Positions 29,296 through 62,488 of a DNA stretch of 64,000 bases are shown here, piece after piece; positions within the stretch are counted from its first letter, which is position 1, and the number at the start of each line of letters is the position of its first letter. The translations under genes were made by a program, and so were the position numbers. This stretch comes from a virus. Taxonomy: Duplodnaviria > Caudoviricetes. Location of the stretch: the IMG/VR virus record IMGVR_UViG_3300028832_000128, positions 1 through 64,000 of that record; one strand, 5' to 3'. The notes below the pieces were generated by a model. It worked only from the letters and a program-made list of their open reading frames with translations. It was not told where the DNA came from and made no database searches.

Positions 29296-29309
29296 ATATT
29301 CTTTTGTTT

Positions 29310-38089: not shown

Positions 38090-41041
38090 TTACCCTCTGT
38101 TCAACTCTCTTAAAGTTTGCCAATACAAAACAATATCATGAATTTCTGTTTGATTTTCAGCTTGCCAACTAAATTTAAGTTTTATTGTTTGTCCTCTTAC
38201 GATACCCGTCAACGTCTTAATTATTTCCGTTAAAACATCTTTATAAGTTAAAACATAATTAACGTATTCTCCGTCGTTTACACTTACTCCAACGGTTATA
38301 TTTTGGCTTGCGATATATCTTGTTTTTATTTTTCTAAACAAGTTTTCAAAATCGCTTAAAGCAAACTTTTTTGTTACAAAATAACTTATATAATTACTTT
38401 CGTCGTTTTTATATCCTGTTTCTTTTTTATAAACCTGTCCTTCTGTAGCACTTATTGCAAACAAATCGTCGTTACTTTTGCAATAATCAAAATTATTTTC
38501 GTTATCTTTAATTGTCCAATATCCGGCTTTATCATAAACACATTCAATAGCGTTGTCGCTCGATTGTTTATCTTGCGGAATATTTAACCTGTATTTATCT
38601 TTATAAACAATCGCACATACTTTGGTTATGTTTTCGCTTGTGTAATATGTTACTTTTAAATCATTGACAAAATTATCACAAAGCTCAGGAAACGTTACTT
38701 TAAATTGAATATAAATATTAAGTGTAATATCATTCGGCACTTGTTCGCCGTTAGCTATTTCATACCAAGTAGCATTACTTAAATCTGTTAAATCTGCTCC
38801 GCTTCTCATATATACGGTTGCTACGCCTGAATAAAATCCTCTTTCTATTCTTGTAAATTCGCTTATTCCCCAAGCCTGAGGCGTTACGGTATTTATTTTT
38901 ATAGGTTCACTTATATAACTATAACTTCCGAGCGTCCAAAAAATAAACCATCTTAAACCGAAAAACCCTTTTGTAAACTCTATTTTATAACGAACGTATC
39001 TGTGAGCATTATTTATGTTTAAAGATATATCGGATAAATTTGTTATTGTATATTCTGTAATATAAGCACTGTCTATATCGCTCCAATGTTCTACGCTTGT
39101 AGGATAATTCGCAACCGAAATTTTTATCGTATATCCGCTATAAGTATCGTCAGCCGCTAATTGTAATCTATTAATCGTAAATCCTGTTGCTCCGTAATCT
39201 ATCTCGGCACTTTTATAAGTATAATCGGCTAAATCTATATTTGTGTTATACTTTAATAACGGGCTTTGATTTTGCAGTGTATCGGCATAATAACCGTCTC
39301 CGTTATGAGAATATGTTGCTAATTTTACAATAAATTGACATCCATATCCGCTAACTCTTTCACTTGCTCCGCCGTTACCGCATACCCAATAAGTTGTATT
39401 AGCTTCCATAGCAACGTTATTGAAACTAAAGCTGTTGTAAGCATTAACAGATATAGAATCATACCCTTTGTTTGCTGTTGTGGCTACAACTTGACCGTTA
39501 TAACTTCCTTTTCTAAGTTGTAAAAACACATATCCGTCTTTTGTATTGTTGTTATAACTTTTAGATGTTATGTATATTTGCACATCTTGCAAATTCCAAT
39601 TTTTTATTTTAGGTTCGATTTTAAAACAAAAACCTCTTCTTATAACTTCACTACCTGTAGAGGTATAAGATAAAATATTTTTCGTATCGCTGCTACTTGC
39701 AGTCGATTCAAAATCCGTTCTTATGCCGCAATTTAAAACAGTATCTGTTACATCCAAAAACTTACCGACGCTTTCTTTTTGCGTCCATACTCCGGTTTCG
39801 CTAAAATATACAGAGTTAGTTATTCTTCTTATTCCTTGCGGTAACAATGTAACAATACCGTTTGTAGTTGCTCCGGTATTATCCCAATTACTATTTTTCT
39901 TATAGCTTCTTTCAATTTGCGTTCCGGTTGCTACAGATATATTTTTTGTCTTATCCTGTATTTGTTCGTCTATTAATACGGCAGTATTACCGTTTAATTG
40001 TGCTACTCCGTCAAGACTCAAATATGTTAAAAACCCGTTAAACAGTCTTATTGTCTCATGAGCTACGGTTCCGTAAGTTGTATCAACTTTATTACTTGTC
40101 CACTGGTCTATATCTCCGTTTGTTAAATATCTGTAGACGTGATGTTGTTTAAATATGTATATGTAAGCACCGCCAAACGAAGCACCGCCTGTAATCTTTT
40201 CTCCGTCGTCTTTACCCACAGTATCATAATTAAGCCCGTAAACAGGCGTCCATCTTACAGGATCATACGGTTGGCTCCAATATACTCCGTTATCGTCTTC
40301 TATACTGCCAAGTCCAAACAGTCTCTCCTGATGTATAAAGCCGATTCTTAATCCTTGCGGAACATTATTATTTACACAATCAGATGTTTCTGTTCTTGTA
40401 TATGTTACTCCGCCGCTATCTGTTAAAGTTGTTCCGCTTACACTTGATACTGTATATTGTATTTTTGTTCTGTAAAGGTCGCTAAAAATAACGGCTCCGC
40501 TTGATGGATTATCACTTAAAGTATAATATACATTTCCGTCATTATTGCTTAACCAGCCGTAAAAATTATCTCTGTTTAAGTAAGTTGCTTTATTTCTGTA
40601 AATTACAAGTATGCAAGCGTTATTAAAATCTTCGTTTTCAATTACCGGATATTTTCCTGTAAACACAAATAAGCGGTCGTTGTATTGAGCGAATCTCACT
40701 CTTACATTTTCGTCTATTAAAACATCTTCGTCGGTTCCGTTATTATTTATTTTAATTTTGTTAAAATTGTCTCTGTTTAGCGGACTATACCATAAATATC
40801 CGCCGCAAGCCACAATTAGCAAACTGCCGTCAACTTTACTGTTGTAAATGGCACAACCCATACAGCTTTTATTATCAAGTAAAGTGCCGTTTACTTTAAT
40901 TTTACCTTTAATGCTTTTCGGTAAATAGTTGTCCGACAAATCTATATTACAACAATCACTAAAAGCATTGTCGCTTATTTTGTCAGCCGGTAACCTTGAA
41001 ATAAGCCCTTTTGAAAAATTATCAATAACTTTAGTTTCCAT
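38090..41041 (-). CDS. Tail tubular/nozzle-like protein
   Basis: Homolog of 1144..4095. Confidence 0.6.
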   Translation of the reverse strand: METKVIDNFSKGLISRLPADKISDNAFSDCCNIDLSDNYLPKSIKGKIKVNGTLLDNKSCMGCAIYNSKVDGSLLIVACGGYLWYSPLNRDNFNKIKINNNGTDEDVLIDENVRVRFAQYNDRLFVFTGKYPVIENEDFNNACILVIYRNKATYLNRDNFYGWLSNNDGNVYYTLSDNPSSGAVIFSDLYRTKIQYTVSSVSGTTLTDSGGVTYTRTETSDCVNNNVPQGLRIGFIHQERLFGLGSIEDDNGVYWSQPYDPVRWTPVYGLNYDTVGKDDGEKITGGASFGGAYIYIFKQHHVYRYLTNGDIDQWTSNKVDTTYGTVAHETIRLFNGFLTYLSLDGVAQLNGNTAVLIDEQIQDKTKNISVATGTQIERSYKKNSNWDNTGATTNGIVTLLPQGIRRITNSVYFSETGVWTQKESVGKFLDVTDTVLNCGIRTDFESTASSSDTKNILSYTSTGSEVIRRGFCFKIEPKIKNWNLQDVQIYITSKSYNNNTKDGYVFLQLRKGSYNGQVVATTANKGYDSISVNAYNSFSFNNVAMEANTTYWVCGNGGASERVSGYGCQFIVKLATYSHNGDGYYADTLQNQSPLLKYNTNIDLADYTYKSAEIDYGATGFTINRLQLAADDTYSGYTIKISVANYPTSVEHWSDIDSAYITEYTITNLSDISLNINNAHRYVRYKIEFTKGFFGLRWFIFWTLGSYSYISEPIKINTVTPQAWGISEFTRIERGFYSGVATVYMRSGADLTDLSNATWYEIANGEQVPNDITLNIYIQFKVTFPELCDNFVNDLKVTYYTSENITKVCAIVYKDKYRLNIPQDKQSSDNAIECVYDKAGYWTIKDNENNFDYCKSNDDLFAISATEGQVYKKETGYKNDESNYISYFVTKKFALSDFENLFRKIKTRYIASQNITVGVSVNDGEYVNYVLTYKDVLTEIIKTLTGIVRGQTIKLKFSWQAENQTEIHDIVLYWQTLRELNRG

Positions 41042-41044
41042 TTT

Positions 41045-41683
41045 TTAACCTCTCGGTCTTGCAATAGTAAATTCGGTTACTGCGTCAATCTTAAATTTTA
41101 AATCTTTAATATCTTTTAAATCTTGCAAATATAAACTGTTATATCTGTCGCTAAGTGCAATATTACCGTCTTCAAGCATACATCTGTAAATTACTCCGTC
41201 AATAATCGCTTGCGAAGCACTTTGTAATTGTTCCGTATTATTAAACGGTTTATCTGTAGAATCAACCATATTATCGGCAACACCTATATAATGTAACGTT
41301 ATATCGCTTGCCGCTTGAGGTTTCGGCACTAAATTTATAACATTAAATTCTTGATAATATGCTTTAGGTTCGCCTGTTTCTTCTCTCCATACTTTTGAAT
41401 TAAATATACACATATCGTCAAGCTGTTGTGCTGTAGTTCCCATAAGTCTTTTATTTTCATACACAACGGCAACCACTTTTAAACAATCTGCAGGAATAGA
41501 ATAGTTTTCGGCTATAGCGTTAAAACTTACCGTATTTGTTTTTAATAACAATTCTGTTTTTCTGCAAATATCGGCTTGTATTAAATTAGCTCTTCTTAAA
41601 AGTTCGCTATCTGTCCAATGTCCGCCTGTTTCAGGTTCTTTTAAACTTCTTTTTATTTCTGCTAAAATTTCGCTCCATTGCAT
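41045..41683 (-). CDS. Head-tail adaptor-like protein
   Basis: Homolog of 4099..4737. Confidence 0.6.
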   Translation of the reverse strand: MQWSEILAEIKRSLKEPETGGHWTDSELLRRANLIQADICRKTELLLKTNTVSFNAIAENYSIPADCLKVVAVVYENKRLMGTTAQQLDDMCIFNSKVWREETGEPKAYYQEFNVINLVPKPQAASDITLHYIGVADNMVDSTDKPFNNTEQLQSASQAIIDGVIYRCMLEDGNIALSDRYNSLYLQDLKDIKDLKFKIDAVTEFTIARPRG

Positions 41684-41694
41684 ACATTATCTCC

Positions 41695-43785
41695 TTACTG
41701 TAAACTTACCGGAGTTTCTACCATGCCCGGCACTTGTGCGGCTTGCTCTTCCGTCATACCTTTAGGAGCAAAATTAGGTTGCTCCTGCGGTGGTAACCCT
41801 GCCTGTTGCGGCTTTTGTGCGCCCATCAACTGTCTTAATATTTCCTGTTGCATAAGTTGTTGTTGCTGCTGTTGTTGCAACTGCAAATATCTTACATGCT
41901 CCTCAATATGTTTTTGTCTTATCGGTTCGTAAGCGGGATTAAGCTCAACTGCTTCATGTGCCTGAATATGAGCAACGTGATTTTCTTGCTGTTTTGCAAA
42001 CGGTGTTTCTCCTTGACTCATTAAAATATTTTCGTCTTGCGGACTTACAAGTTGGCTATCAACTTCTTTTGAAATAATAGAAAGGTCGCCGTCATTTAAT
42101 ATTTCGGCAATCTTTTTGGCAAGCTCTGTAATATTCCAAATACCGCCCGGACTTTTAATTGCCATATTGTAAAGGTTCATTAACTGTTGCCCTTTTACAA
42201 CTTTATTTTCTGTCTCGCTTACCGAAAGTGGTATAAAATCAAAATCGCTCATTAACACCTTACTTAAATCGTAATCGTCATTAATCTTAATATTCATTGC
42301 AGCAACATAAGCCCCAAACGCTTCGGCTCCTATTATCTTTTTTACGTCGTTTGTGCTCATAAATTGCAAATTATAGCCGTATGCTTTTCGTAAATACGCT
42401 TTTATAACTTCGTCTTCGAATGTTCTGAGTTTTGTAAATATTTCTCTTTGCGAAGAATTATTTATTGCGTTAGCTTCCGTTGCCGTTGTATCATATCTTG
42501 CAGGCAATCCTTGTAAATTTGCAGAAGCTCCCGTAACTGTCATAATATCGTTTTTGGTTAGCTGTATTCCTCTTAACGCAGCCTCGGACACATTCGGCGG
42601 TCTTACAAATGTTACGCCGTCTTTACCTGTTTGACTGTGCATAATACCTCTCGGTCTTGATTTTAATTCCGATTCAGGTATTCCTGCCTGAGCGTCCACA
42701 ACCATCATACAATCAAGTATCATAGTCAAATCGTCCATAAATTGATTCATAAAATCATTTAATGCGAGTTGACTTTCTTTTGCAAGCTCGGGCACGCCCA
42801 TCCCTATACTTTCGGCTTTTTTAATATCTTCCCACTTAAAAAGCACATAAGGCTTTTCCTGAATATCATAAGGATTTAATTCACATCTTATTACCTGTTT
42901 TTTATCTATAACGGTTATAATACATTCTTCTTCTATACCGTCGTCGTCAATATCAAAATTACACCAACATTCAAGCAACTCATGTCTTTTTTTATCGACT
43001 CTCATTGTGTCGCCCGTTCCTACACTGGCAGCGGTATGAGCATAATTTTCAGTAACGTCAGGCTCTGTAATACCGGCTTCATGGCGTTGTAAATACTCTT
43101 CAACTCCAAAATAACTGTCGTTACCTTTAGCCATAATTCTTAAATCGCTTTCGCTTACATTCGGTATTTTTTCAATAATAGCTTCCTGTTCTTCCCATTT
43201 TCTGTAAAAATCCCAAAACACATTTTCAAGTTCAAGCACGCTAAAATCTATATTATCGTAAATAGGAACACTATCTTTTTTAACTTTCGGTATAAAAAAC
43301 TCGCCTGTTCCTATACTTTTAATAATACCCATAATACCTTTTCTGTCTTCTATATTTTTTAATACATACTTCTTTTTTTGCACCCAGCTCACTTTAGCTA
43401 TTGCCGTTCCGTTAATAATTGCTGTTTCTAAAAAACGTCTTACTTTTGTTCTAAAGTTTATTTTCTGTTGCTGTAAATTTAAAATTTTTGTATTTATTTC
43501 GGCTTTCTTTTCGTCATTCGGTCCGCCTACACCTTGCAACTTAAAGTTAGGTTTTTTTGCAAACAAACATTCGTCGCAAAAATTCAATAAAGTTCTTACC
43601 GCTTTTCTTGTTTCGGGCACAAACAAGTTGGCTACACCGTTGACATAAGTTTTTTTAGAATATTTATTGTTATATAGCTTATCGTAATCAATCCACTTTT
43701 GTTCGGTTTCTGATCTTTCAGAATACCTTGAAAAAGTAGTTAAAACAAAATTCAAAGCCTTTTGGTGTAATTTTTCTTTATTCAT
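41695..43785 (-). CDS. Portal protein
   Basis: Homolog of 4749..6839. Confidence 0.75.
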   Translation of the reverse strand: MNKEKLHQKALNFVLTTFSRYSERSETEQKWIDYDKLYNNKYSKKTYVNGVANLFVPETRKAVRTLLNFCDECLFAKKPNFKLQGVGGPNDEKKAEINTKILNLQQQKINFRTKVRRFLETAIINGTAIAKVSWVQKKKYVLKNIEDRKGIMGIIKSIGTGEFFIPKVKKDSVPIYDNIDFSVLELENVFWDFYRKWEEQEAIIEKIPNVSESDLRIMAKGNDSYFGVEEYLQRHEAGITEPDVTENYAHTAASVGTGDTMRVDKKRHELLECWCNFDIDDDGIEEECIITVIDKKQVIRCELNPYDIQEKPYVLFKWEDIKKAESIGMGVPELAKESQLALNDFMNQFMDDLTMILDCMMVVDAQAGIPESELKSRPRGIMHSQTGKDGVTFVRPPNVSEAALRGIQLTKNDIMTVTGASANLQGLPARYDTTATEANAINNSSQREIFTKLRTFEDEVIKAYLRKAYGYNLQFMSTNDVKKIIGAEAFGAYVAAMNIKINDDYDLSKVLMSDFDFIPLSVSETENKVVKGQQLMNLYNMAIKSPGGIWNITELAKKIAEILNDGDLSIISKEVDSQLVSPQDENILMSQGETPFAKQQENHVAHIQAHEAVELNPAYEPIRQKHIEEHVRYLQLQQQQQQQLMQQEILRQLMGAQKPQQAGLPPQEQPNFAPKGMTEEQAAQVPGMVETPVSLQ

Positions 43786-43797
43786 GTTTTTTTCTCC

Positions 43798-45294
43798 TTA
43801 TTGTCCTAACCCGTAACCGGTAACACTACCCGAATTATAAACATAATTATCTTGCTCAATAGCTCTAAACGCTTTACCGTGTTTATATTTAATTTTCAAT
43901 ACAAGTGCATATCTTAAAGCGTCAGGCAAATCGTCATAAACTTTTTTAGGTCTTTCTTTAATTGCCGTTTGTCTGTTCGGTTCGCTCCATACATATTTAC
44001 CCATACAACTTATAAGTTGTTTGCATTTATCTCCGAAAAAATACATATTCGGTTCGCCGTTAGCGTTTATATGCAAATATTCACATACCGCATTTTTACC
44101 TACAACGAAATTTTTTGTAGAAGATCTAAACACAAGGTTCCATTTTAATCTTAGTCCTTCAGCTCCAAACTCTCTCTGTGCGTTTCTTCCCGATATTCTG
44201 TCAGGTGTTGCTGAAATAGAATCAATAAATCTATACTCGGCAGGTCCGCCTGTTTCTTGTTCTTTGGCTACAATTTTCTCGGCAATCTCTTTAACCGTTC
44301 CGCCTGTAACAAGTTCATCGTAAACAAACGCCCTGTCTTTTTCGTCAATTGCTACCCACACAACAACACAATCTTTTTGGCTATGATAATCCATAGCACA
44401 AATTCTTACCCAATTTTCAGGTATATCAAAACTTTTCATTATATGTTTGGCACAAAACTCTTTATAAACAAGCCCGGACAAATGTTTAAATTTGCCGTAA
44501 ACTCTTGCTTCTCTTTCTTCTTCCGGTATTTGGCTTATAAAAAATTCTCTTGCTTTATCTGTCAAATAAATATTGTCAAACAACGAAAATTCAAACACAT
44601 CGGTATCTTTGTCGCCATGCAAACCTTTTAAATAAATCTCGTCATATATCCAAGGTTCATTTAAAGGAGTTGCCGTAATCCATACCTTTCCGTCAAATCT
44701 CATTAAACCCCTTATTGTAGCCGTATATTTATCCTGTGGCGGCGGTTCGTCAAAATGACATCCGTGTCCTGTCCAACCTTCATATAAATCGGTTTCTTGT
44801 TCATAACTCATAAGTTCGATAGTAGAACCGTTTTTAAAATATATCTTCTTCCATTGTCCGCCCGAATACTTTGCAGGTCTTCCTTTTAATGTTTCGGGCG
44901 GAATCAATTTTTGATATTTACTTACAATAACTTCTTGAATACCTTTGTCTAAATCGTTCGCACATACTCTTAATTTATATGGCGGTCTGCACTTCATTTT
45001 TTCAATTGTATTACCAAGTCCTAACGCAATTCTTATATCTTCGGCACATCCGCATTCTGTTTTACCTGTCTGATTGCCACCTAAAGCAAGTCTCACTTTT
45101 TTAAAACTGTTATGAAACTTTTGCTGATACGGTTGCGGACGGTAATAACATATTCCGTAGTTTTTTTCTCTGTCTTCAAGTTCATATTTATAATTAAGCA
45201 AAGCATTCAGCTTATCAAGCGATAAACTTTCCAAGTCAATATTATTCGCTTTTACAAACTCGTCAAATCTGATAGGTTCTATATTTTCAAACAT
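43798..45294 (-). CDS. terL: Terminase large subunit
   Basis: Same motifs as A copy. Confidence 0.9.
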   Translation of the reverse strand: MFENIEPIRFDEFVKANNIDLESLSLDKLNALLNYKYELEDREKNYGICYYRPQPYQQKFHNSFKKVRLALGGNQTGKTECGCAEDIRIALGLGNTIEKMKCRPPYKLRVCANDLDKGIQEVIVSKYQKLIPPETLKGRPAKYSGGQWKKIYFKNGSTIELMSYEQETDLYEGWTGHGCHFDEPPPQDKYTATIRGLMRFDGKVWITATPLNEPWIYDEIYLKGLHGDKDTDVFEFSLFDNIYLTDKAREFFISQIPEEEREARVYGKFKHLSGLVYKEFCAKHIMKSFDIPENWVRICAMDYHSQKDCVVVWVAIDEKDRAFVYDELVTGGTVKEIAEKIVAKEQETGGPAEYRFIDSISATPDRISGRNAQREFGAEGLRLKWNLVFRSSTKNFVVGKNAVCEYLHINANGEPNMYFFGDKCKQLISCMGKYVWSEPNRQTAIKERPKKVYDDLPDALRYALVLKIKYKHGKAFRAIEQDNYVYNSGSVTGYGLGQ

Positions 45295-45770
45295 TATGCT
45301 CCTATTTTCGGAATACTTGTTGAAAATTCTACGGCTTCAATTTGTTCAATTGTTGTGCATTGTTCCAAAGCATTTATTGCGGTTCTCCATGCGGCTCTTG
45401 CCTGTGCAAGTGCTGCATACTGCTCTTGGCTTATTACGCCCTCGCCATACTTAATTGCTTCATAATCGGTCGCCTCAAGCAACTTTTTTAATCTGTTTAT
45501 TTTTAATTCTTTGTTTGCAATTACATCGGCTTCAATTGCCTTGTTCCAATAATAATCAAAATGAGCAACAATACTCTCTTTTGTTATATTTGCAACTTTC
45601 GGATATATCAATCTTACTGCGTCAACTTCATATACGGTTTTATTTTGTCCGTTTTCGGTTTCAACGGTTTTTTCAACCGCATTTTTAAACAACAAAACTT
45701 CCGTAAATCTATCTGTTTGTCTAACATCAACATTATCTTGTGGCACTACATCAACCGTTATTTTGCTCAT
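45294..45770 (-). CDS. Tail-fibre assembly chaperone-like protein
   Basis: LEATDY...RAAWRTAIN; ATGA-coupled to RT. Confidence 0.5.
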   Translation of the reverse strand: MSKITVDVVPQDNVDVRQTDRFTEVLLFKNAVEKTVETENGQNKTVYEVDAVRLIYPKVANITKESIVAHFDYYWNKAIEADVIANKELKINRLKKLLEATDYEAIKYGEGVISQEQYAALAQARAAWRTAINALEQCTTIEQIEAVEFSTSIPKIGA

Positions 45771-46783
45771 TTACACAACCCCCTTAATTGACTATAATTT
45801 ATTTTTGAATTTATGTAATTTTCCAACTTAAAACTGCTAAACCATTTTAATCCGCCAAGTCTGCAACTTAATCTTGTAGCCCAATATTTACACGGTTTTT
45901 TAACATAATGTTTTAATGTTCTGTATAATCCGTATAAATTTCTTTTTCTAAGTAAAACATAATTATAAAAGAACCTGTAACCGAGCATATCAATCCCTCT
46001 TACTTTGGTTCTGAAAATTTGCCAATTTTGTTTAAGTTTTAATTCTGCTTTTTGTAATATTTCCACTATGGTAGGTAATAATCTGCGTAATTTTCTTTTA
46101 TTGCTTGAAAGCACAATAAAATCGTCAACGTATCTCAAATAATAATTAATTCCGTCCGATTGTCTTATTGTTGTATCTAATTTTAATAACAAAAGATTCT
46201 CAAACCATGCACTTGTGTAATTTCCAAGCGGTAAACTTTTCATACTAAATGCTACTGTTTGTAACAGTTTTAAATATTTTTTATCTTTTATAAAACGTTT
46301 AAAGCACTCTACAACATACTGCGGTTTTATATTGTCGTAACATTTTTTAATATCACATTTAAGGCACCACTTCGTTCCTTTTTTGTCGGTATTAAGCCAT
46401 CTTGTAATTGCTTTGTAACCGTAATGAATACCACGCCCCGGAATTGAAGCAATAGCGTATGGATCCAATCTTTTCAACAATCTGTCATACACCAAATCAA
46501 TTAACAGATGGTGTATACACTGGTCCGGATAAAATACAGGTTTGTGTAATACTCTACGCTTGCCTGACGGTTGGTCGACTATATTACATACGGTATAAGG
46601 CGACGGTTTATATGTTTGTGTTAAAACCATCTCTTTTAATTCTTCCGCATAAAAATCAATATTGTTTAAAACTTTTTTAACACTGTTTCTTTTAGTTTTA
46701 AACTTTGCGGCTTTTAAAATTATCCGTTTACAATACTCTGTTGTAATTTTCTCGTTGGTAATCAAATTTCCAACTCTTTTCAT
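45767..46783 (-). CDS. DGR reverse transcriptase (B)
   Basis: YVDD, LPLGNYTSA, GIDMLGY; 338 aa. Confidence 0.95.
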   Translation of the reverse strand: MKRVGNLITNEKITTEYCKRIILKAAKFKTKRNSVKKVLNNIDFYAEELKEMVLTQTYKPSPYTVCNIVDQPSGKRRVLHKPVFYPDQCIHHLLIDLVYDRLLKRLDPYAIASIPGRGIHYGYKAITRWLNTDKKGTKWCLKCDIKKCYDNIKPQYVVECFKRFIKDKKYLKLLQTVAFSMKSLPLGNYTSAWFENLLLLKLDTTIRQSDGINYYLRYVDDFIVLSSNKRKLRRLLPTIVEILQKAELKLKQNWQIFRTKVRGIDMLGYRFFYNYVLLRKRNLYGLYRTLKHYVKKPCKYWATRLSCRLGGLKWFSSFKLENYINSKINYSQLRGLCK

Positions 46784-46963
46784 TTCGTTTTATTTCCTGT
46801 TTTTTTATCTTTTTTTACACTTCTTATAGTGTTTATATCTTTCAGAGTTTTCTATTCGTTAAAAACGAAATACTAACCCTGCCTTTTGTTGTCTTATTTT
46901 CACCAAGTGGTGCGGATTATACAAACAATAGAAAATATTTTTACTCCAAGTTTTTAAGATATT

Positions 46964-47064
46964 AACTCAGCGGGCACCGTTATTCCGCCTCGCATTGTCA
47001 AGCCCGTTGTTCAAATTCCAGTAGAAAGCCCCGTAATTCGCCCCGTTGTTGCAATTGCCGCCAT
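46964..47064 (-). repeat. DGR template repeat TR-B
   Basis: 101-bp match to 47202..47302; 15 mismatches at TR adenines, 1 at a C. Confidence 0.97.
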
Positions 47065-47134
47065 TTTGTATAACCCGTAGGGATTAATCCCTGTTTTACC
47101 TCTATTTAAAGAACAAGTTTTTATTTCTTTAGCT

Positions 47135-47173
47135 TTAAGGGAAAAGGCGGCACTGCGTGCCTTTTTCCCTTAA
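47135..47173 (-). promoter_or_regulatory. Hairpin downstream of VR-B
   Basis: Same 11-bp outer stem as in A plus inner ggcac-gca-gtgcc hairpin. Confidence 0.65.
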
Positions 47174-47192
47174 CAACCCTTTTCTAAAAGGC

Positions 47193-49034
47193 TCACTGTA
47201 AAACACAGCGGGCACCGTAATACCGCCTCGCATAGTCAAGCCCGTCGACCAAATGCCAAGAGAAAGCCCCGCAAAGCGCCCCGTAGCTGCAATAGCCGCC
47301 ATACCAAGCCGACTTTTGTCCTGCTGACGCTGTTAAATAACTGTAGTCGTCGGTTAAATATTTTACGTTTTGCACTCTTGTAACACCGGTATTCGATGGC
47401 AAGAAAGCAAATAAAGCAAGGCTGCTTAAAGCTACAAACTTTTTATCCCATCCCTCGCTTGTTCCTATATTTCCTACAGCTGTCCAATTTTTATTGTTTG
47501 CCGTATTTGTGTAAGCGTAATCGCTGTTATTTGGTTTTGGATTAACATATACCGTAGCCACTCCGTCAGCAACAATGTTTTCCATACCGCCCACGGCTTT
47601 GTTTTCGTTAGCATACCACTCACATATACCCATAACTTTCATAGGTCTTCTTGTTGTTGTGGTTATTGCTCCGTTTGCCGTATAATATCCGTCGTCGCCG
47701 AGTATTGCGTCTGCTCCGCCGGAAGCCCTTAATCCTAAATATATTGTTTGGTTTACCGTAGTAGTAATTTCGGTATCGATATTTATTTTTTTACAAGCTG
47801 TTTCAACGCCGTCTATTGTTTCGGTAACATCTTCTACACTCGAAATTTTATATCCTGTTGACGACGTATTCACATAAACAATATTATTTGTAATATCTTG
47901 TTCCAAACTTGCAACCCAATTTGTAGCCAAAATTATTATGCTGTTTTCATTACTCTGAGCAACGGCAACTTTTGTTTCTTTCCATCCCTCGCTTATACCT
48001 TGTCCTACGGAATATTGCCAATTCAAACTTGCATATTTAACTATACCAAGTAATTGTATGGCGGTTATTTCGTTTAGGTTCATAAGTCTTTGCGTTTTTG
48101 CTCTGAGCAACGCCTCAAACTGTTGGTTTGTTTTATAAGTTAAAGGAATACAATCTTTTCTTACGCAACAACCATTGTCGTCTGCTCCCTCGGGATAACA
48201 TACCTCATACTTGCCGTAATAGATATATTCTTTTAAATTTCCGTCGTCGTCTTTAAACCCCGGAGCTACTTCATAACCTTGCTCAGGCGAATCACTAAGC
48301 CATATTTCAATACCGTCGTCGGTAATTTGGCTTTTGTGCCAAAATATTCTTTTAGCAACAAATCTATCCCATCCCTCGCTATTTTTGTATTGTTCAAACT
48401 CATAGGTTCCCTCTACATACATTGTTCTTACTTGTGTCTGAGGATTATAATTAACAATACAATCAAATTTGCTGTAAATAGGATGATCTTTAAAATCGTC
48501 TGTTCCTGCTTCTGTATCGGATGAAGGGCTAAAATCCATACTTGTAGCACCGCCAAGTCTTGTGATAGTTCCATCGTATTTAATCAATACACCCAACTTT
48601 GTAGCACTTTTATATACTTGTTCTATATGATTAAACACAAAAGCCGTCGTTGCTACTTTTCTGCTAATATCGTCCATCGGCTGAGTTACCGCTTTTAATT
48701 CTCCTGAAAAATCTTTGTTACCTGTTATCTCTTCGGTGCCTGTAATATGCACAAGGTTTGTTTCAGGTTGTCCTTGTAATTCTTCGCCGTTCCAATAATA
48801 GTAAGTTCCGTTATACAAGTATGCTATTCTGCTGTCAGGATCAACTCCGCTGTCTTTTGTTGTTGTTGTAAGTGCAGTATATATTTTATCGTTATAAAAC
48901 CATTTGCTGCCTCTTACATACGGTGTTGACGGTTCTTCGCCCATTGCAATTAAAGCAACAACTCCTACGTTTCCGCCGTTATTGCCGCCTACTCTTGTTC
49001 TTCCTGTATTTCTTACTCCGTCTTCATAACCCAT
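47193..49034 (-). CDS. DGR target protein B (receptor-binding, CLec-like VR)
   Basis: N-terminus shared with target A; ends GGYCSYGALCGAFSW...RYYGARCVLQ; start at ATG after gaggtg. Confidence 0.9.
   Translation of the reverse strand: MGYEDGVRNTGRTRVGGNNGGNVGVVALIAMGEEPSTPYVRGSKWFYNDKIYTALTTTTKDSGVDPDSRIAYLYNGTYYYWNGEELQGQPETNLVHITGTEEITGNKDFSGELKAVTQPMDDISRKVATTAFVFNHIEQVYKSATKLGVLIKYDGTITRLGGATSMDFSPSSDTEAGTDDFKDHPIYSKFDCIVNYNPQTQVRTMYVEGTYEFEQYKNSEGWDRFVAKRIFWHKSQITDDGIEIWLSDSPEQGYEVAPGFKDDDGNLKEYIYYGKYEVCYPEGADDNGCCVRKDCIPLTYKTNQQFEALLRAKTQRLMNLNEITAIQLLGIVKYASLNWQYSVGQGISEGWKETKVAVAQSNENSIIILATNWVASLEQDITNNIVYVNTSSTGYKISSVEDVTETIDGVETACKKINIDTEITTTVNQTIYLGLRASGGADAILGDDGYYTANGAITTTTRRPMKVMGICEWYANENKAVGGMENIVADGVATVYVNPKPNNSDYAYTNTANNKNWTAVGNIGTSEGWDKKFVALSSLALFAFLPSNTGVTRVQNVKYLTDDYSYLTASAGQKSAWYGGYCSYGALCGAFSWHLVDGLDYARRYYGARCVLQ
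47202..47302 (-). repeat. DGR variable repeat VR-B
   Basis: Adenine-biased divergence from TR-B. Confidence 0.97.
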
Positions 49035-49050
49035 TGTAACCACCTCTTTT

Positions 49051-49209
49051 TTAAAATCGCCAAGTAAGTTTTATGAATTTCCCGTCTATAAACTCGTTAC
49101 TTATTGGCATATATAACCTGCTTGTAAATTCTATTTTTGGCATATACGGACTGTTTTTGATTTTGTAATAACAAATTCCTGCTTTACCTACTTTCCACAA
49201 CCTAAACAG
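49051..49209 (-). CDS. 52-codon frame behind holin-like TGA (B)
   Basis: Homolog of 12277..12435, same length. Confidence 0.65.
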   Translation of the reverse strand: MFRLWKVGKAGICYYKIKNSPYMPKIEFTSRLYMPISNEFIDGKFIKLTWRF

Positions 49210-49584
49210 TCATTTAAAATCTTCATTGTTTTTGTATTGATCTAACACATCTTTAATATTTTTAAGTTCAATATTATCTGCAATTTCTTCTATAAGTTTT
49301 TTAGCTTTTTCAATTGTTGTAATGTCCGGAGCGTCTCCTTGTTCTTTTGTGTATGCTTCGTTAAATTTTCCAAGTGCATTACCAACAAACTTAACCCAAT
49401 TTACATTTGAGTTTTGCGGTATGATTTTTAACGCAAAACTGACAGCCTGATTAACATATTTATCCAATATAACATCGTCTGTCTTTGTTTCTGTTTTTCT
49501 TACAATCCAAATTCCGATTCTAACCAAACAATAAAATAAAATTACCCATCCGCCATTTATAAAAATCTGTTTTAAAAATTCCAT
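49210..49584 (-). CDS. Holin-like membrane protein
   Basis: Homolog of 12436..12816. Confidence 0.5.
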   Translation of the reverse strand: MEFLKQIFINGGWVILFYCLVRIGIWIVRKTETKTDDVILDKYVNQAVSFALKIIPQNSNVNWVKFVGNALGKFNEAYTKEQGDAPDITTIEKAKKLIEEIADNIELKNIKDVLDQYKNNEDFK

Positions 49585-49619
49585 ATCTTTACTTGTCTCC
49601 TTTTTTATTTTTTTTATTT

Positions 49620-49901
49620 CTACATTTCTTGTTCTAATTGTTTTAATTCTTTCAAACTTTTTACTTGCTCGATTTTACTTAAATCACTTTTTAAAACTTT
49701 TATGTCGTCAAACTCTACCGTCATTGTGTATCTGTCTCCGTCTTCTTCCTGATAATGCGAAACGCTTTTAACTCTGCCATACCCTTTTACAACTACTTTT
49801 TCATTAACTTTAAAATCGGGTATATTTTCTACTTCTTTGTTGTCTAAATAAATACTTTGTTTTGGTTTTTCTATTTCTGCTATCTTTTTGTCTTTTGACA
49901 T
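49620..49901 (-). CDS. Hypothetical head-module protein
   Basis: Homolog of 12849..13127. Confidence 0.7.
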   Translation of the reverse strand: MSKDKKIAEIEKPKQSIYLDNKEVENIPDFKVNEKVVVKGYGRVKSVSHYQEEDGDRYTMTVEFDDIKVLKSDLSKIEQVKSLKELKQLEQEM

Positions 49902-49924
49902 CTGTTTACATCTCCTTTATTTGT

Positions 49925-49958
49925 AAAAGAGCAAGAGAGAAAATCTCCCTTGCTCTTT
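49925..49958. terminator. Terminator after capsid gene
   Basis: aagagcaag...cttgctctt stem. Confidence 0.75.
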
Positions 49959-49965
49959 GTTATGT

Positions 49966-51129
49966 TTAGGCAGTTGCACCGCAAAGGATGTTTACACCAA
50001 ACACGCCGTTCAATGTCTTTGCCACAAACGGAACTTTATAACCTACCGTTCCGGTCATTTCCAAAGGTTGTGCCAAATCTTGAGGATTTTTAACAATGAT
50101 TTTTCTCTTTACTCCGTCAAGATCTACAACGCCGAATGCTTCTCTTCCTAAAAGTGTGATTACGTGCACAGCACCTGTTTCACTTGCTACGCCCGCAACT
50201 GATTCTCTATACACTTCTGTTGCAGAAACAAACCTTATTCCATACCATTCGCCGAGTTCGCCTTCGTATATATCTTTTTTATCCTGATACTTCTTAACAT
50301 CTTTCCATTCGGAATCGTTCATAAAATCGTATTCCGTGTCAGGATCAACAATACATACATATTTTCCATCTTCGAACGGCATAGCTTTTGCTCTTTTGAG
50401 ATCTCTTCTTGCAAGTTTAATTGCGGTAGAAGAAAGCACATCGGTTGCAGCAATACCTGTTCCTACAACAACTCTAAACGAAGCACCGGAAGGAACGGCT
50501 ACAGGCAAAGCGTCAACGGTTAAAGTATCTGTTGAAGCGTCAAAGTCTGTAACTTTTACGGTAATACCGTAGTTCGGCTTTGTAGGATCTGTAAATGTTA
50601 CATATCCGCCGTTCCAGTGATCATTTGATTCGGTTAAAGAAGAAGAAATAATTGTTGTTTTTGTTCCTGCTGCAGTAGAAACAACATCTTTTTGATATGT
50701 TCCGTCTGCGTCGGCTCTTCTTCTGATAAAACCTGTTCCGATTTCGTCATTGATTAAACTATTGATTGTTTCGCCGCATGCGTTTGCCACAATATCAACT
50801 TTCTCTTTTACACCTTTATCGAGTGCGGTAAGAGAAGCGATTTCGGAAATTTCAACAACATCGCCATACCAGTTAATATTTGCAGATATTTCCTGCTGTT
50901 GTAGGGCTTTGTTGGTTATTCCGCCTGTTGCCGATTCCTGAAGAGGAGTTTTGTTTTTAGGTAAAGGTTGGTAACGAGTAAAATATATCGTTTTACCTTT
51001 TCCTTGTTCGAGTGTTCTTTTTTGTGCAAATTGCTCAGCTACCATTAAAGGTTTTGCCATAAGCAACAATCTTTTGTCATAATAAGCCTGCACAAAAGGG
51101 CTTAAGTTGGATGTAGTTGTTACTGACAT
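49966..51129 (-). CDS. Major capsid protein (N4 gp56-like)
   Basis: Start set to ATG after ggaggg; 387 aa as in A. Confidence 0.85.
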   Translation of the reverse strand: MSVTTTSNLSPFVQAYYDKRLLLMAKPLMVAEQFAQKRTLEQGKGKTIYFTRYQPLPKNKTPLQESATGGITNKALQQQEISANINWYGDVVEISEIASLTALDKGVKEKVDIVANACGETINSLINDEIGTGFIRRRADADGTYQKDVVSTAAGTKTTIISSSLTESNDHWNGGYVTFTDPTKPNYGITVKVTDFDASTDTLTVDALPVAVPSGASFRVVVGTGIAATDVLSSTAIKLARRDLKRAKAMPFEDGKYVCIVDPDTEYDFMNDSEWKDVKKYQDKKDIYEGELGEWYGIRFVSATEVYRESVAGVASETGAVHVITLLGREAFGVVDLDGVKRKIIVKNPQDLAQPLEMTGTVGYKVPFVAKTLNGVFGVNILCGATA

Positions 51130-51207
51130 GATAAAATCCCTCCGTTTAATTTTTTTTGCAATTCTTAAAATCTTGCTTTTACTGCTTACTTCTTCGCTCA
51201 ATTTAAG

Positions 51208-51307
51208 ATTGTTCTGTAAAATAAACAGAGGTCTTTTATTTTTGAGTTTTTATTTTAAATTTTTGTTAGCAGTTTAAAGGATTATCTGTAAGCAAACTTA
51301 CAAGGTC
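51208..51307 (-). promoter_or_regulatory. Two GACC-hairpin-AYAATC motifs (B)
   Basis: See 14434..14524. Confidence 0.6.
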
Positions 51308-51337
51308 CCGCTATCTGCCAAACAAATTTTTAAATTT

Positions 51338-52342
51338 CTAATTCATACTTTTTTCAAGTTCTTCTAATTCTTTTTTGTTTTTAACTTTATTAATCTTTTC
51401 AATTATATCGTTCTCGTTCGTAGTCGTTTTAGTTGGTGCCGCTGCTGCTGCCGCAACTTTTTGTTTGTTTTTCTTTTCTTGCTCTATTTTAAGTATTCTT
51501 TCTTCTTCAGCTTTACGTCCTTTTAAAATATCCTTTACTATATACAAAGATGTTATTTCCGGATATTCGTCAGTTATTTTTTTACAGTCTTTTGCAAACT
51601 CTTCTTTTTCTTCTTGGCTCATACCTTTGGTTATATCATCCCATTCGGCTTGAGCTTTTTTTTCAAAAGCAACTTTTTGTTTTTCAATCTCTGCTTTTTC
51701 GTCTTTATTATCTTTTGGTTTAACGTCAATTTGAAGTTTTTTAACAATATTTTCAATAGCCTCGATAGGATTATTCATAAATTCTTCGTTAAACTTATCA
51801 ATCATTTTTTGTTTTTCTTCTTCAGTCGGTTCATTCTGTTTGTCTTCCACTTTTTTAACAGCTTGCTCCAACTGCTCAAGTCTTTGTTTTAACTTATCGT
51901 TTTCAGCTTTTACATCGTTTCTTTCTGTCAACGCCGAAGATTTACTTTTTTCAGCCTGCCTACCCCATTCAACCACATCTTCGATATATTTAAACTTTTC
52001 CGGTATGTTATATTTTTTTCTTATATCATCCGTAATAGGAGTTTTCTTTTTTGTTTTTTCGTTGTTTTTATTATCACTATTGTCGGCATTATCCTCATTA
52101 TTGTCAGTATTATCATTGTCGTTATTTTCGCTACCGTCTTGATTGTCTTCGTTATTATCTTCGTTATTGTCTTCTGTGTCGTTGTTATTTGCATTGTTGT
52201 CAACATTATCATTATTATCAGCGTTTGGCGGCGTATCATTGCTACCGCCGTTATCTTTATTTTCTTCTGTTATTTGTGTTTCAAGCTGTTCAAGTTCTTC
52301 AACACTTTTTGCTTTACTTATTTGGTTTTCAATTCCCGGCAT
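51338..52342 (-). CDS. Capsid scaffolding protein
   Basis: Homolog of A; start at ATG after aaggagacag. Confidence 0.75.
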   Translation of the reverse strand: MPGIENQISKAKSVEELEQLETQITEENKDNGGSNDTPPNADNNDNVDNNANNNDTEDNNEDNNEDNQDGSENNDNDNTDNNEDNADNSDNKNNEKTKKKTPITDDIRKKYNIPEKFKYIEDVVEWGRQAEKSKSSALTERNDVKAENDKLKQRLEQLEQAVKKVEDKQNEPTEEEKQKMIDKFNEEFMNNPIEAIENIVKKLQIDVKPKDNKDEKAEIEKQKVAFEKKAQAEWDDITKGMSQEEKEEFAKDCKKITDEYPEITSLYIVKDILKGRKAEEERILKIEQEKKNKQKVAAAAAAPTKTTTNENDIIEKINKVKNKKELEELEKSMN

Positions 52343-55381: not shown

Positions 55382-55425
55382 TTTGTTTCTGTCTCCTTTT
55401 TTTAAAAAACTTTTTCTATGTTTTT

Positions 55426-55501
55426 CGCTTTCTGTAGGATTCGAACCTACACTCCCAAATACACCGGTTCTTTGGTGTTCTTCCGTCTAAACTAAGAAAG
55501 C
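55426..55501 (-). tRNA. tRNA-like element with non-canonical anticodon arm (B only)
   Basis: GCTTTCT/AGAAAGC acceptor, GTAGG-TTCGAAT-CCTAC T arm, D arm with GG; CCAAA/TTTGG stem encloses 11 nt. Confidence 0.55.
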
Positions 55502-55502
55502 A

Positions 55503-55760
55503 TTATATCGGCAACAAATTATTTTGTATAAAAGCGTATAACCTGTTATAACTCCACCCGAATTTATCGGCAATCTGTTTTGTTGTATATTTCTTATACA
55601 ATCTCATATACAAATCAATATGTTTGTCTTTTAAATTTGCCTTTTTATCCATACACCGCCTAAACGGTCTATCTATTTTCTTTCTTAATTTTGCACAATA
55701 AAAGTAAGTTCCTTTTTTACTATCTTCCACAGTGGCAAAATTACAATCAATACAATTCAT
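55503..55760 (-). CDS. Cys-cluster plus HTH protein (B only)
   Basis: CIDC...C...C then YTTKQIADKFGWSYNRL. Confidence 0.65.
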   Translation of the reverse strand: MNCIDCNFATVEDSKKGTYFYCAKLRKKIDRPFRRCMDKKANLKDKHIDLYMRLYKKYTTKQIADKFGWSYNRLYAFIQNNLLPI

Positions 55761-56391
55761 CTGCTTATCCTTTTAAGTTGCTTTTTAAGCCGAGAAAAAA
55801 AGAAAAAATATATTTTATCGTCGTAAATTTAAGTTGCTGGCAAGTTGCTTTTTTGCAAATTATCAATATTGATAATCCGCCCGGCTTTAAAAAAAATTTT
55901 TTCAAAATCTACCACTTAATAAAAGGCTTTTAATTTCTTAAAAACTCGAAATTATCAAAACTGATAAAATTAAAAACGCCGTTGGTTTGATTCGAACAAA
56001 CATCGTCAATTGTCTAAATCTATCGGTGGACAGATTTAAAGTCATTGAAATTTTAACCGCTTAAACTACAACAGCATTAATTTATACCAACAAAGATAAA
56101 TCTCTTAAAATTTCAGCCTTTCCGTTAGCCCAAAACAAAATTAAATTGTTTTTATTACCTTATTATCTCGCTTTTTATAAAAAACTCTCTGTAAGGCTGA
56201 CATTTTATAAGCCGGAGCCGCTGTCGGGACCTACCGGCAACCGTGTCCGGTGCCGAACTTGATATTATGTTAAGTTCAGGCGTCAAATTCTTTGTTTTAT
56301 CGTCGGAAACTTTGCTTTATTTTTGCTTGTTTGTGTGTCTGATATGGCTTGTGCGATTGTTTGTTTTGTCTGATCCTGATACAGACATCTA

Positions 56392-56569: not shown

Positions 56570-57181
56570 CTAATTCATTAAATTTGATTCATTTTTCAAT
56601 ATATTTTTAATTAAAACTTTTGTAACTTTTGAATTATCTTCGTTTTTTTCGTTATTTTTTTCAAAATTAGCACTCTCAAAACTTGTTGAATTTTCAATAC
56701 TTTTTTGGTTTTGTCGTTTTCCGTCGGTTAAAATATCTATAATTTCGGCTTTACTTGTCATTTTTACGGTCTCAGTGCGTTGCGTTACTCCGCCTGAAAG
56801 CAATTGAATTTTATCTATTGCTATAGCCATCGCCATAGCTAATTGACTTAATGAGGCTTTTTCTCTCTTCTTTTTAAGCCCTATTTCCGTCAATATATCC
56901 TTTGTTATATCTTGCAGACTCTCGACGGTCTTTGTCGCCCAATTTTTTGTTGTAGCAAGGACGGTGTCTCGAATTTCCTTTTTTACCTGTCCTATTCTCT
57001 CCCCAAAGAGCCTGTTTATCTTAGTTATTGTATCAGGCGACACTTTGTGTTTTTTTGCAATTTTGTCGTGCGAAACAAGCCCTATGCAAAGGTCAGAAAC
57101 TATTGCATTGACTGTTGTTTCAGGGAGATTAATTTTTTCTAAATTTTCAGTATTTTCCATATTATTTTTTATGCACGACAA
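56570..57181 (-). CDS. Putative terminase small subunit
   Basis: N-terminal part identical to A, C-terminal part diverged. Confidence 0.5.
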   Translation of the reverse strand: MSCIKNNMENTENLEKINLPETTVNAIVSDLCIGLVSHDKIAKKHKVSPDTITKINRLFGERIGQVKKEIRDTVLATTKNWATKTVESLQDITKDILTEIGLKKKREKASLSQLAMAMAIAIDKIQLLSGGVTQRTETVKMTSKAEIIDILTDGKRQNQKSIENSTSFESANFEKNNEKNEDNSKVTKVLIKNILKNESNLMN

Positions 57182-57253
57182 CCTAATATTTTTAACTTCT
57201 AAAATCTTAATTTTATAGACGATAAAATCATTATACCGGTATCAAATACGGTA

Positions 57254-57598
57254 TTATTTAATTTCGCAAAGTAAAGCATATATCCGCCGTTCGCTTACAC
57301 CTATCAACTTATGTATTTTTCGACGACCGTAACCAAGTTGAAAATGTAAAAAAATAACAAATCTTTCAATTTTGGTATATCGTCCTAAAGCGGTTATCTT
57401 TGCTTTTTTTTCAAATTTCAAATAGCTGTTATATTCTGTTGATCTTAATTTGCTTTTATAATTAACGGATATTTTCCGTTCTACATATTTTCGTCTAACA
57501 AACTTGTAAAACTTTTCATCCGGAATCAATTTTATCTTTGGAGCTTTGCTTTTATATTCGTCTATATCAAACAACAAATTTTGTCTTTTTCTCGTCAT
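57254..57598 (-). CDS. Sigma70 region-4-like HTH late regulator candidate
   Basis: Identical translation to A. Confidence 0.6.
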   Translation of the reverse strand: MTRKRQNLLFDIDEYKSKAPKIKLIPDEKFYKFVRRKYVERKISVNYKSKLRSTEYNSYLKFEKKAKITALGRYTKIERFVIFLHFQLGYGRRKIHKLIGVSERRIYALLCEIK

Positions 57599-57603
57599 AA
57601 AAT

Positions 57604-57648
57604 AAAAAAGACGGCAATAAACAGAGTTTAACTCTGCTTATTACCGTC
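57604..57648 (-). terminator. Intrinsic terminator (B copy)
   Basis: Same as 20461..20505. Confidence 0.85.
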
Positions 57649-57773
57649 CATATTTGTTAAATTATTATAACTGCAAATAAAAAAAGCCAAAGAAAAAAAT
57701 GTCCTTCTTACCCATTTTTTATCTTTCGCCGATTTGATTTTAATATATTTTAAAAAAAATGTCAACATATTTT

Positions 57774-58946
57774 TTACCTATGCACGATAATTTTTAAAAC
57801 TTGCACAAGTCTCGTAAGTTCTTGTTTCCAATTTTTTTTATATTCGTCTATATGTTTAAGTGCTTCAAATTGTCCGTATTTACTTTTTAAATCTGCCATC
57901 ATTACATTAAAATTCACAGTCTTATATACTATATCTTGTGTTTTGTTTTCTTTAATATCTATATGTTGTGTTTGTTCTTTTTGTTTTTCTTGTTCTTTTC
58001 TCTTATTTACTGCTGCAACACAAATTTGATTACAGGATGTTTCTAATACTTCCAACGAAAATTTATTATATTGCCAAGCAGATTTATTCGTCGCAAGTTT
58101 AAAAAATTCTTTAATAATATAAGCCGCTTTAAGTTCTCCATAAGTTGTAAATATTCTGTTCATTATGCTCATATCTTTTTTAAAATTACATTTAAATTGA
58201 TTATTAAATTCGGACTGAAACAACATACACCAATAACCTAAAAGTCTTTTACTTGCGTTATCAGAATTGATTAATGATTTTTTGTTATTAATATCTTCGA
58301 TATTAATTTTAATATTATTTATATATATATTATTATAAAAACTTTTTTTTGTAATTTCGTATTCATTCAAATTTGCATTGATTTTTGAATTGATTTCTTG
58401 TTTATTATCAATATTGATAATTTCCTTATTTTGTTGTAAATTATTATTGATTTTTAAGTCGTTTTTTGAATTTTCAAGCGTGTTATCAATATTGATAATT
58501 TGTTCTTTTTTTTCTTCGTTATTTAAATTGTTATCAATATTGATAATTTTAACATCCTTTTTTTCTTGGTTATCGTCTATCTTTAAGCTATTTTTTTGAT
58601 TTTTATTTGAATTTTCAACCGCATTATCAATATTGATAATTTGTTGCCACTTTTTCGTATTTTTTACAACCGTAAAATAGTTTTTTTTGCCTACTTTTTC
58701 TTTTATTATTATTCCCATATTCTGTAGGTTTTTTAAGCCTCTTAAAACATTTGTAACGCCTAATCCGGTAAGTTCCACAAACTCGATGTTTTCTATGCAA
58801 TTTTTATTCATACCGTAGCCGTAAGTCTTAGCCAATATTACATATAACACCTGATGTGTTTCTCCTGCGATCCTAAGCCCTGCTAATCTTTCCCATATTT
58901 CAACATCGATTAAACCTTTTCTTTTATTTTCAAATAAATCATCCAT
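57774..58946 (-). CDS. Replication initiator, lambda O-like
   Basis: Identical translation to A; iterons at 58404..58639. Confidence 0.8.
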   Translation of the reverse strand: MDDLFENKRKGLIDVEIWERLAGLRIAGETHQVLYVILAKTYGYGMNKNCIENIEFVELTGLGVTNVLRGLKNLQNMGIIIKEKVGKKNYFTVVKNTKKWQQIINIDNAVENSNKNQKNSLKIDDNQEKKDVKIINIDNNLNNEEKKEQIINIDNTLENSKNDLKINNNLQQNKEIINIDNKQEINSKINANLNEYEITKKSFYNNIYINNIKINIEDINNKKSLINSDNASKRLLGYWCMLFQSEFNNQFKCNFKKDMSIMNRIFTTYGELKAAYIIKEFFKLATNKSAWQYNKFSLEVLETSCNQICVAAVNKRKEQEKQKEQTQHIDIKENKTQDIVYKTVNFNVMMADLKSKYGQFEALKHIDEYKKNWKQELTRLVQVLKIIVHR

Positions 58947-60285: not shown

Positions 60286-60294
60286 TTTGCACCC

Positions 60295-61199: not shown

Positions 61200-61200
61200 A

Positions 61201-61521: not shown

Positions 61522-61525
61522 ATAT

Positions 61526-62469: not shown

Positions 62470-62488
62470 TCTTTGTTCTCCTTGCGTT

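Follow-up and report, generated by a model that had tools for sequence, protein, structure and literature searches.

Organization of the DGR-B cassette

The DNA analysed here, hereafter called the window, comprises the 64,000 nucleotides at positions 1 to 64,000 of a single 75,585-bp virus record of IMG/VR (IMGVR_UViG_3300028832_000128). On its minus strand lies a diversity-generating retroelement (DGR), named DGR-B, in which the target gene, the variable repeat (VR-B), a hairpin, the template repeat (TR-B), a 180-nt spacer and the reverse transcriptase (RT-B) gene follow each other in this order and are succeeded by an open reading frame (ORF) of 158 aa. A first-pass annotation of the sequence had proposed that DGR-B is a second, distinct DGR besides another one (DGR-A) in the same window, and that the two are parallel diversifiers in one locus. 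As judged from its sequence, DGR-B is a genuine and recently active DGR of the simple type without Avd.

A repeat search identified TR-B (46964-47064, minus strand) and VR-B (47202-47302, minus strand) as a 101-nt direct repeat with 84% identity, which showed a weak relationship to another pair at 9972-10072 and 10212-10312. Base-by-base comparison gave 16 mismatches over the 101 nt, 15 of which are at TR adenines, the remaining one being a C-to-T change inside a TAC>TCT codon change; these are the numbers that had first been reported. The TR-B core contains 26 adenines, and the hypergeometric probability of finding at least 15 of 16 mismatches at adenines is 3.7e-10. Ten in-frame AAY codons are present in each TR core, that of DGR-B having one extra AAT at its fuzzy 5' edge, and TR-B contains an in-frame TGA where the VR reads TGT. 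VR-B makes up the last ~35 codons, and thus the 3' end, of the target gene (47193-49034, minus strand), which codes for 613 aa from the ATG at 49034, the codon that aligns with the start of target-A, or for 616 aa from the GTG at 49043, to which the ORF prediction reaches. The VR-B pattern, with N at the adenine positions, was also scanned against IMG/VR, the window's own record excluded, and gave no match.

TR-B and VR-B have the GC-rich 3' end GGTGCCCGCTG in common, and their homology stops 4-6 nt beyond it. This identical 3' end followed by divergence resembles an initiation of mutagenic homing (IMH) element and is accompanied by an inverted repeat downstream of the VR, the functions of both being predicted. 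The inverted repeat forms a hairpin, TTAAGGGAAAA...TTTTCCCTTAA (47135-47173, minus strand), ~30 nt downstream of VR-B, with a DNA fold of -18.5 kcal/mol and a z-score of -2.96. According to the alignment of the A and B cassettes, in which the hairpin is a conserved block, its outer stem is also kept after VR-A, and the B hairpin has a 13-nt extension.

The RT-B gene (45767-46783, minus strand) starts 180 nt downstream of the TR and codes for a protein of 338 aa matching Pfam RVT_1 (6.4e-18) and PHROG 1423 (6.1e-67), whereas its NCBIfam matches, like those of RT-A, are all under their cut-offs. Its frame is intact, and the alignment reads YVDD at the position of the catalytic YxDD motif. The best match among solved structures is 8ub7_A, a 328-aa reverse transcriptase (E 5e-15), which we take to be part of the BPP-1 bRT complex. 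The usual motif of DGR reverse transcriptases is (I/L/V)GxxxSQ; both RT-A and RT-B read LGNYTSA, with SA in place of SQ.

The spacer between TR-B and RT-B (46784-46963, minus strand) presumably represents the 3' part of the DGR RNA. The A/B alignment and RNAalifold indicated a small hairpin in it, CACC-ACTT-GGTG at 46901-46912 in B and TGGC-ACTT-GCCA at 9914-9925 in A (minus strand). The ACTT loop is unchanged between the two, and three of the four stem pairs are swapped compensatorily, in a comparison of only two independent sequence types. This suggests that the hairpin is a candidate RT-recognition RNA element specific to each DGR. A promoter and terminator scan of the cassette found no more sites than in shuffled sequence.

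The 158-aa ORF (45294-45770, minus strand) begins with an ATG that overlaps the stop codon of RT-B (ATGA). Such an overlap of the RT stop with the start of an ORF of 150-158 aa occurs in both cassettes, at 45767-45770 and 8797-8800. The ORF had no Avd match in Pfam, PHROGs or NCBIfam, and its structural neighbours in the Atlas are PF16778 Phage_tail_APC (template modelling (TM) score 0.68) and DUF4376 (TM 0.64). These model-based neighbours provide a lead, which points to a protein resembling a tail-assembly chaperone and not to Avd. The 150-158-aa chaperone-like ORF is missing from three relatives without this DGR (L001, L002 and L005) and travels with the DGR and target module.

Searches of Pfam, PHROGs and NCBIfam revealed no Avd match for any ORF between 45294 and 49901. 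By contrast, a 141-aa ORF of the relative L002 matches NF033474 Avd, although weakly (1.4e-5). Avd is found in about 74% of DGRs and is not universal. In the survey of Wu et al. 2018 (PMC5758913), 29% of the curated DGRs have no accessory gene and an avd-less lineage is described, so the absence of Avd does not exclude DGR-B from the DGRs.

Recent activity of DGR-B

A 19.8-kb B-type contig from another metagenome (L008) is 96-98% identical to the window overall and 98.4% identical over the 3.4-kb cassette. The two cassettes differ at 56 positions, 22 of which are crowded into 77 nt of the VR, the other 34 being spread over the remaining ~3.3 kb (~1%). Twenty of the 22 VR differences fall at TR-adenine positions. 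Comparison of the L008 VR with its own TR gave 17 differences, every one of them at an adenine; the adenine-specific pattern is thus seen in both sequences (15/16 in the window and 17/17 in L008). The sole TR difference between the window and L008, a C-to-T change, has also been copied into the L008 VR. This turnover of the VR, together with a VR that tracks a TR polymorphism, indicates repeated TR-to-VR transfer in the recent past of the lineage.

It could be argued that DGR-B is a decayed relic with old TR/VR mismatches, given the one non-adenine mismatch (C>T) in VR-B and the failure to find an Avd gene. At the position of this mismatch, however, the L008 VR keeps the C of the TR, which is also the base of TR-A, and the change is therefore private to the window. 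As mentioned above, 29% of the curated DGRs do without an accessory gene. An intact RT frame with YVDD, 22 differences within 77 nt of VR between two 98%-identical cassettes and the copying of a private TR polymorphism all argue against decay, and we consider a relic hardly credible.

The mechanism we infer for DGR-B is that of an active element. TR and spacer would be transcribed, and RT-B would copy the transcript into cDNA with random bases opposite the template adenines. The cDNA would then replace VR-B, guided by the identical GC-rich 3' end and probably also by the downstream hairpin. As a result, a tail-fibre-like receptor-binding protein could have about 26 positions rewritten within its last ~35 codons.

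Comparison of DGR-A and DGR-B

DGR-A occupies 8797-12230 on the minus strand and comprises RT-A (8797-9822), TR-A (9972-10072), VR-A (10212-10312) and target-A (10200-12230). TR-A and VR-A differ by 13 mismatches, all of them at TR adenines (P 1.3e-9). The alignment shows that the order and the spacing of the elements are identical in both cassettes, and DGR-B is orthologous to DGR-A, whose position it takes in the second copy of the phage genome. It is nevertheless a complete and distinct system, as first proposed, with its own TR, VR, target and RT, the latter sharing 78% aa identity with RT-A.

Both TRs are 101 nt long and are identical at 72 of 101 positions in register. TGCAACAACGGGGCGAAT and AATTTGAACAAC are present in both, whereas GGCGGGCGTTGC is confined to TR-A/VR-A and GGTGCCCGCTG to TR-B/VR-B. 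The first-pass annotation was thus right on the equal lengths, the ten AAY codons in each TR, the two common blocks and the differing GC-rich ends. It had considered the two systems probably orthogonal at the priming end, but had also raised the possibility that the common blocks allow cross-templating or sharing of RTs. At 19 diagnostic positions, where TR-A and TR-B differ and neither has an adenine, VR-A carries the TR-A base in 19 of 19 cases and VR-B the TR-B base in 19 of 19. In practice each VR hence follows its own TR, as orthogonality implies, and the assembled VR-A and VR-B give no sign of cross-templating, each VR appearing to have been templated by its own TR; sharing of RTs between A and B would leave no sequence trace.

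The target protein and its variable domain

Target-B matches PHROG 5302 'tail protein' (E 1.7e-23). Relatives of the C-terminal domain of the target are 500-830-aa phage proteins, 17 of which were found among 1.84 billion representatives, and some of them carry BppL_N or T7 tail-fibre N-terminal domains. Because of the PHROG match and of these relatives, target-B is best read as a putative receptor-binding tail fibre. Target-A and target-B are 39% identical, with about 70% identity over the first ~170 aa and an insertion of ~60 aa in A. They had been described as sharing the N-terminus and diverging afterwards. The conserved N-terminal part is indeed there, but the proteins are homologous throughout and, since they are colinear to the end, should be regarded as diverged orthologues and not as different proteins with a common head.

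A phmmer search of the target against PDB sequences found no match, nor was there a Pfam match. AlphaFold models of the C-terminal 195 aa reached a predicted local distance difference test score (pLDDT) of 33 with a 4-row and of 47 with a 16-row alignment, and no fold was assignable. In a Foldseek comparison of these low-confidence models with the PDB the best E value was 2.6, and a C-type lectin or immunoglobulin fold was not demonstrated. The ESM Atlas includes the target without a model, and its feature matches there are unnamed. The motif GG.C..GA..G.F...G.RCV presumably resembles the VRs of C-type lectin (CLec) type.

The phage genome and its relatives

Self-comparison showed that the 75,585-bp record contains a genome of ~37 kb 2.03 times over, in colinear head-to-tail order. 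Identity between the copies is 76-83% apart from a single stretch of 9,396 bp, which is exactly the same at 19824-29219 and 56967-66362. The claim of two parallel diversifiers in one locus was not supported in this form: DGR-A and DGR-B lie 37 kb apart, at the equivalent position in two diverged copies that are joined by this exact repeat. Between the final 1,226 nt of the record (74360-75585) and positions 1-1225 of the window there is an overlap of only 94.5% identity, in which no exact run exceeds 106 nt. This overlap marks the beginning of a third phage variant, so that the record does not close into a clean circle. No host DNA was detected in the whole 75.6-kb record.

The exact block has its start within a gene and extends as far as the outer attP arm. 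Its first copy (19824-29219) contains replication genes (DnaB, RepO), a CI-like helix-turn-helix (HTH) repressor gene, a tyrosine integrase gene and attP; the second copy (56967-64000 in the window) continues past the window to 66362 of the contig. As the block is exactly identical, features in it that appear 'conserved in both units' are one sequence counted twice. The integrase (27912-29015, plus strand) matches PHROG 1 integrase (1.9e-38) and Pfam Phage_integrase (1.1e-13), and its presence indicates a temperate phage. The attP core (29059-29144), read from the sequence, resembles the 5' half of a tRNA and lies between TTTACCCAAATTTTACCCA repeats. The units meet at 29.1 kb and 66.3 kb, and both of these junctions are in attP form. 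The genome also encodes TerL, an SU10-type portal and adaptor, a major capsid protein and a virion protein of 2,149 aa, and the phage is a temperate, podovirus-like phage of ~37 kb.

Two stretches are peculiar to copy B. ARAGORN predicted a tRNA-Pro(CGG) at 55425-55502 (minus strand), in a ~430-nt stretch without a counterpart in copy A (alignment gap at 18718 versus 55414-55850). Right after attP, copy B has about 220 additional nt (contig positions 66363-66610) that are lacking in copy A; the location is typical of morons, and a small minus-strand ORF may lie there.

A sheep-rumen Elusimicrobia metagenome-assembled genome (MAG) contains one related prophage, with a TerL of 97% identity, inside a 146-kb contig, and the host of the phage is very likely a rumen Elusimicrobia bacterium. 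TerL was matched in three of 401 Elusimicrobiota genomes, with one match each, and apart from the MAG they are not of close A or B type. Sequencing runs from about a dozen cattle and sheep gut studies contain the B stretch 40501-50500 nearly word for word. A megablast search with 41000-52000 against 50,697 phage records gave no match, and tblastn with TerL gave only matches below 30% identity.

The MAG prophage (L005) lacks a DGR; the corresponding stretch (8663-9966) codes for a 115-aa protein, after which come ORFs of 185 and 129 aa. The 115-aa protein starts with MGLEDGVRN..RTR, and its first ~20 residues are like those of both DGR targets. Because a DGR-less prophage carries other genes there, the slot between the holin-like gene and TerL appears to be an exchangeable receptor-binding module, of which the conserved head of ~20 residues may be the virion-attachment peptide. 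Another relative, the 35.5-kb IMG/VR phage L002, whose TerL is 80% identical, carries a different DGR elsewhere in its genome (4498-7347), composed of a 327-aa target, the Avd-like 141-aa ORF, a TR and a 375-aa RT, and its capsid gene runs directly into TerL. This different and differently placed DGR indicates that this phage group acquired DGRs on more than one occasion.

Thirty-seven nt of the attP core are found identically in the 35.5-kb relative and in an otherwise unrelated 36.9-kb IMG/VR phage (G002), which has only the ~89-nt tRNA-like core in common with the phage described here. Since the core stretch recurs in an unrelated phage, it seems that one tRNA att site serves several rumen phages.

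One locus or joined variants

Logan contigs of four sequencing runs (X1, X3, X8 and X12), of which X1 is the probable source run, were compared over positions 9901-29900. The depth of a Logan contig is one mean per contig and thus a crude measure, not a copy number. In X1, the contigs identical to the A-specific part had word depths of 17.3, 8.4, 11.1 and 8.4, and those of the shared block had depths of 41-81. A 2.3-kb contig with a depth of 81.3 enters the shared block from the left and has the B base at 32 of its 33 listed differences from A. In addition, several loose ends carry sequence that is absent from the whole record. The loose ends and the unequal depth indicate that the sample holds more variants than the contig, B being several-fold commoner than A, and for this reason an A-B array in stoichiometric amounts does not fit. 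The other three runs were chosen for holding the B stretch; they showed little or no cover of the A-specific part (9901-19800), with four exact 151-nt pieces at a depth of 2 among the matches listed for X3, and they were not counted as evidence, since missing cover by Logan contigs does not prove absence.

Contigs with the size of a single unit encode proteins of both RT clusters, namely contigs of 37,499, 37,652 and 38,781 nt for the RT-B cluster and one of 37,111 nt for the RT-A cluster. The exact RT-B sequence was found on 12 contigs (the longest of 95,240 nt) and the exact RT-A sequence on four (the longest of 365,571 nt). According to the CheckV study (PMC8116208), IMG/VR contigs that hold the same genome 2.0-6.8 times are likely to be artefacts that arose when the metagenomes were assembled. 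We consider it fairly probable that the present contig is such an assembly concatenation of co-occurring phage variants, and that A and B are consequently two phages with one DGR each. The assembler would have walked through two or three co-occurring variants that share the identical 9.4-kb early, immunity and integration block. The first-pass annotation had itself named an origin of A and B in different cells as the finding that would overturn its claim; with depths of 8-17 against 81 such an origin is now the likelier one, although it is unproven.

Several observations weigh against a concatenation. An integrase and a CI-like repressor mark the phage as temperate, and both inter-unit junctions have the intact attP form, as inside a true tandem lysogen. 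Furthermore, the 9.4-kb repeat is passed twice with different exits, which is not obvious for a coverage-driven short-read walk, and, contig depth being no copy number, A and B could be arranged in tandem in a minority of the cells. The mosaic adjacency seen in relatives may be listed here as well but decides nothing: L008 joins the B-type late genes to the right arm of the third copy (R3-type), and the MAG joins them to an R1-like arm.

Two or three homoimmune prophages integrated head to tail at one tRNA att site, i.e. a true tandem polylysogen, would account for the integrase, the repressor and the attP-form junctions at 29.1 and 66.3 kb, which would be the interior junctions of the array. 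One cell would then harbour two orthogonal DGRs, and the early block would have been equalised by gene conversion or recent recombination. The ending of the exact block right at the outer attP arm and the colinearity of the contig, which has no frame breaks at the unit boundaries, agree with such an array. We regard it as doubtful, however, as the 75.6 kb contain no host DNA and the two units are followed by part of a third copy, which differs again. The depths in X1, 8.4-17.3 for the exact A type and 81.3 for the B type, differ from the equal abundance of an array, with the restriction that each depth is a mean. Moreover, both units have the same repressor, so that superinfection would be blocked by immunity if this is of the lambda type, and an exact direct repeat of 9.4 kb would probably be lost quickly by homologous recombination. 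Finally, the three TerL-matching genomes among the 401 of Elusimicrobiota have single copies only.

In the most far-reaching version, the contig would be a faithful chromosome in which homoimmune sister prophages lie in tandem with an identical immunity and integration block, two mutually orthogonal DGRs (different IMH ends, covarying spacer hairpins and RTs with 78% identity) and two receptor-binding proteins with one common virion-attachment N-terminus. We hold this to be unlikely. A real hetero-concatemer or heterodimer, i.e. a replication or packaging intermediate that arose by recombination of co-infecting relatives, would likewise be head-to-tail with a ~37-kb unit and without host DNA, and the exact common block offers a substrate for the recombination. 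Molecules of this kind are short-lived and are rare in comparison with monomers, the unequal depth of A and B opposes a stoichiometric molecule, and nothing in the sequence requires one, which makes this origin very improbable.

Relation to known systems and significance

DGR-B resembles the prototype of the Bordetella phage BPP-1 (mtd-avd-TR-brt) in being phage-borne, in its adenine-specific TR/VR differences and in diversifying a tail-fibre receptor-binding protein over its C-terminal ~35-50 codons. Further common features are a GC-rich 3' end that is identical in TR and VR and followed by divergence (IMH-like) and the inverted repeat downstream of the VR. Unlike BPP-1, the DGR-B cassette has no avd, either between VR and TR or anywhere else, its RT carries LGNYTSA, an ORF resembling a tail-assembly chaperone is translationally coupled to the RT stop, and a C-type lectin fold was not demonstrated for its target. 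By gene content it is like the Architecture A DGRs of Wu et al. 2018 (PMC5758913), which consist of target, TR and RT without an Avd, HRDC, MSL or CH1 gene; unlike the DGRs of that survey, it resides in a phage of rumen Elusimicrobia.

About 10% of the DGR-bearing complete genomes have several DGRs, and Syntrophobotulus glycolicus has five near-identical DGR copies via several prophages (PMC5758913). As in such multi-prophage genomes, more than one DGR is present here, each in its own prophage copy. In contrast to S. glycolicus, the cassettes are diverged (RT 78% aa, TR 71% nt and target 39% aa identity), and their presence in one genome is doubtful. The record is like the concatenated IMG/VR contigs of CheckV (PMC8116208) in having about twice the unit length, a head-to-tail arrangement and no host flanks, but it differs from them in that its copies are only 76-83% identical; if it is an artefact, the assembly would be a walk through strains and not a loop around one. 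Taken together, DGR-B probably works like the BPP-1 prototype, and it is improbable that any single genome has two diversifiers in one locus.

A 75.6-kb 'virus genome' composed of two diverged copies should not be taken for one locus, and claims on the interplay of two DGRs, or of other duplicated features, hinge on a physical linkage that is doubtful here. If the tandem array were true, it would be a natural test bed for DGR orthogonality, i.e. for the question which parts of TR, spacer and IMH separate co-resident systems, and a single lysogen, once induced, would release phenotypically mixed particles from two independently hypermutating receptor-binding repertoires. DGR-B itself, as a clean and active DGR without Avd in which a chaperone-like gene is coupled to the RT, is a data point for the Avd-less class. 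It comes from a little-known group of phages, which are temperate, have rumen Elusimicrobia as hosts and possess SU10-type portal and adaptor proteins.

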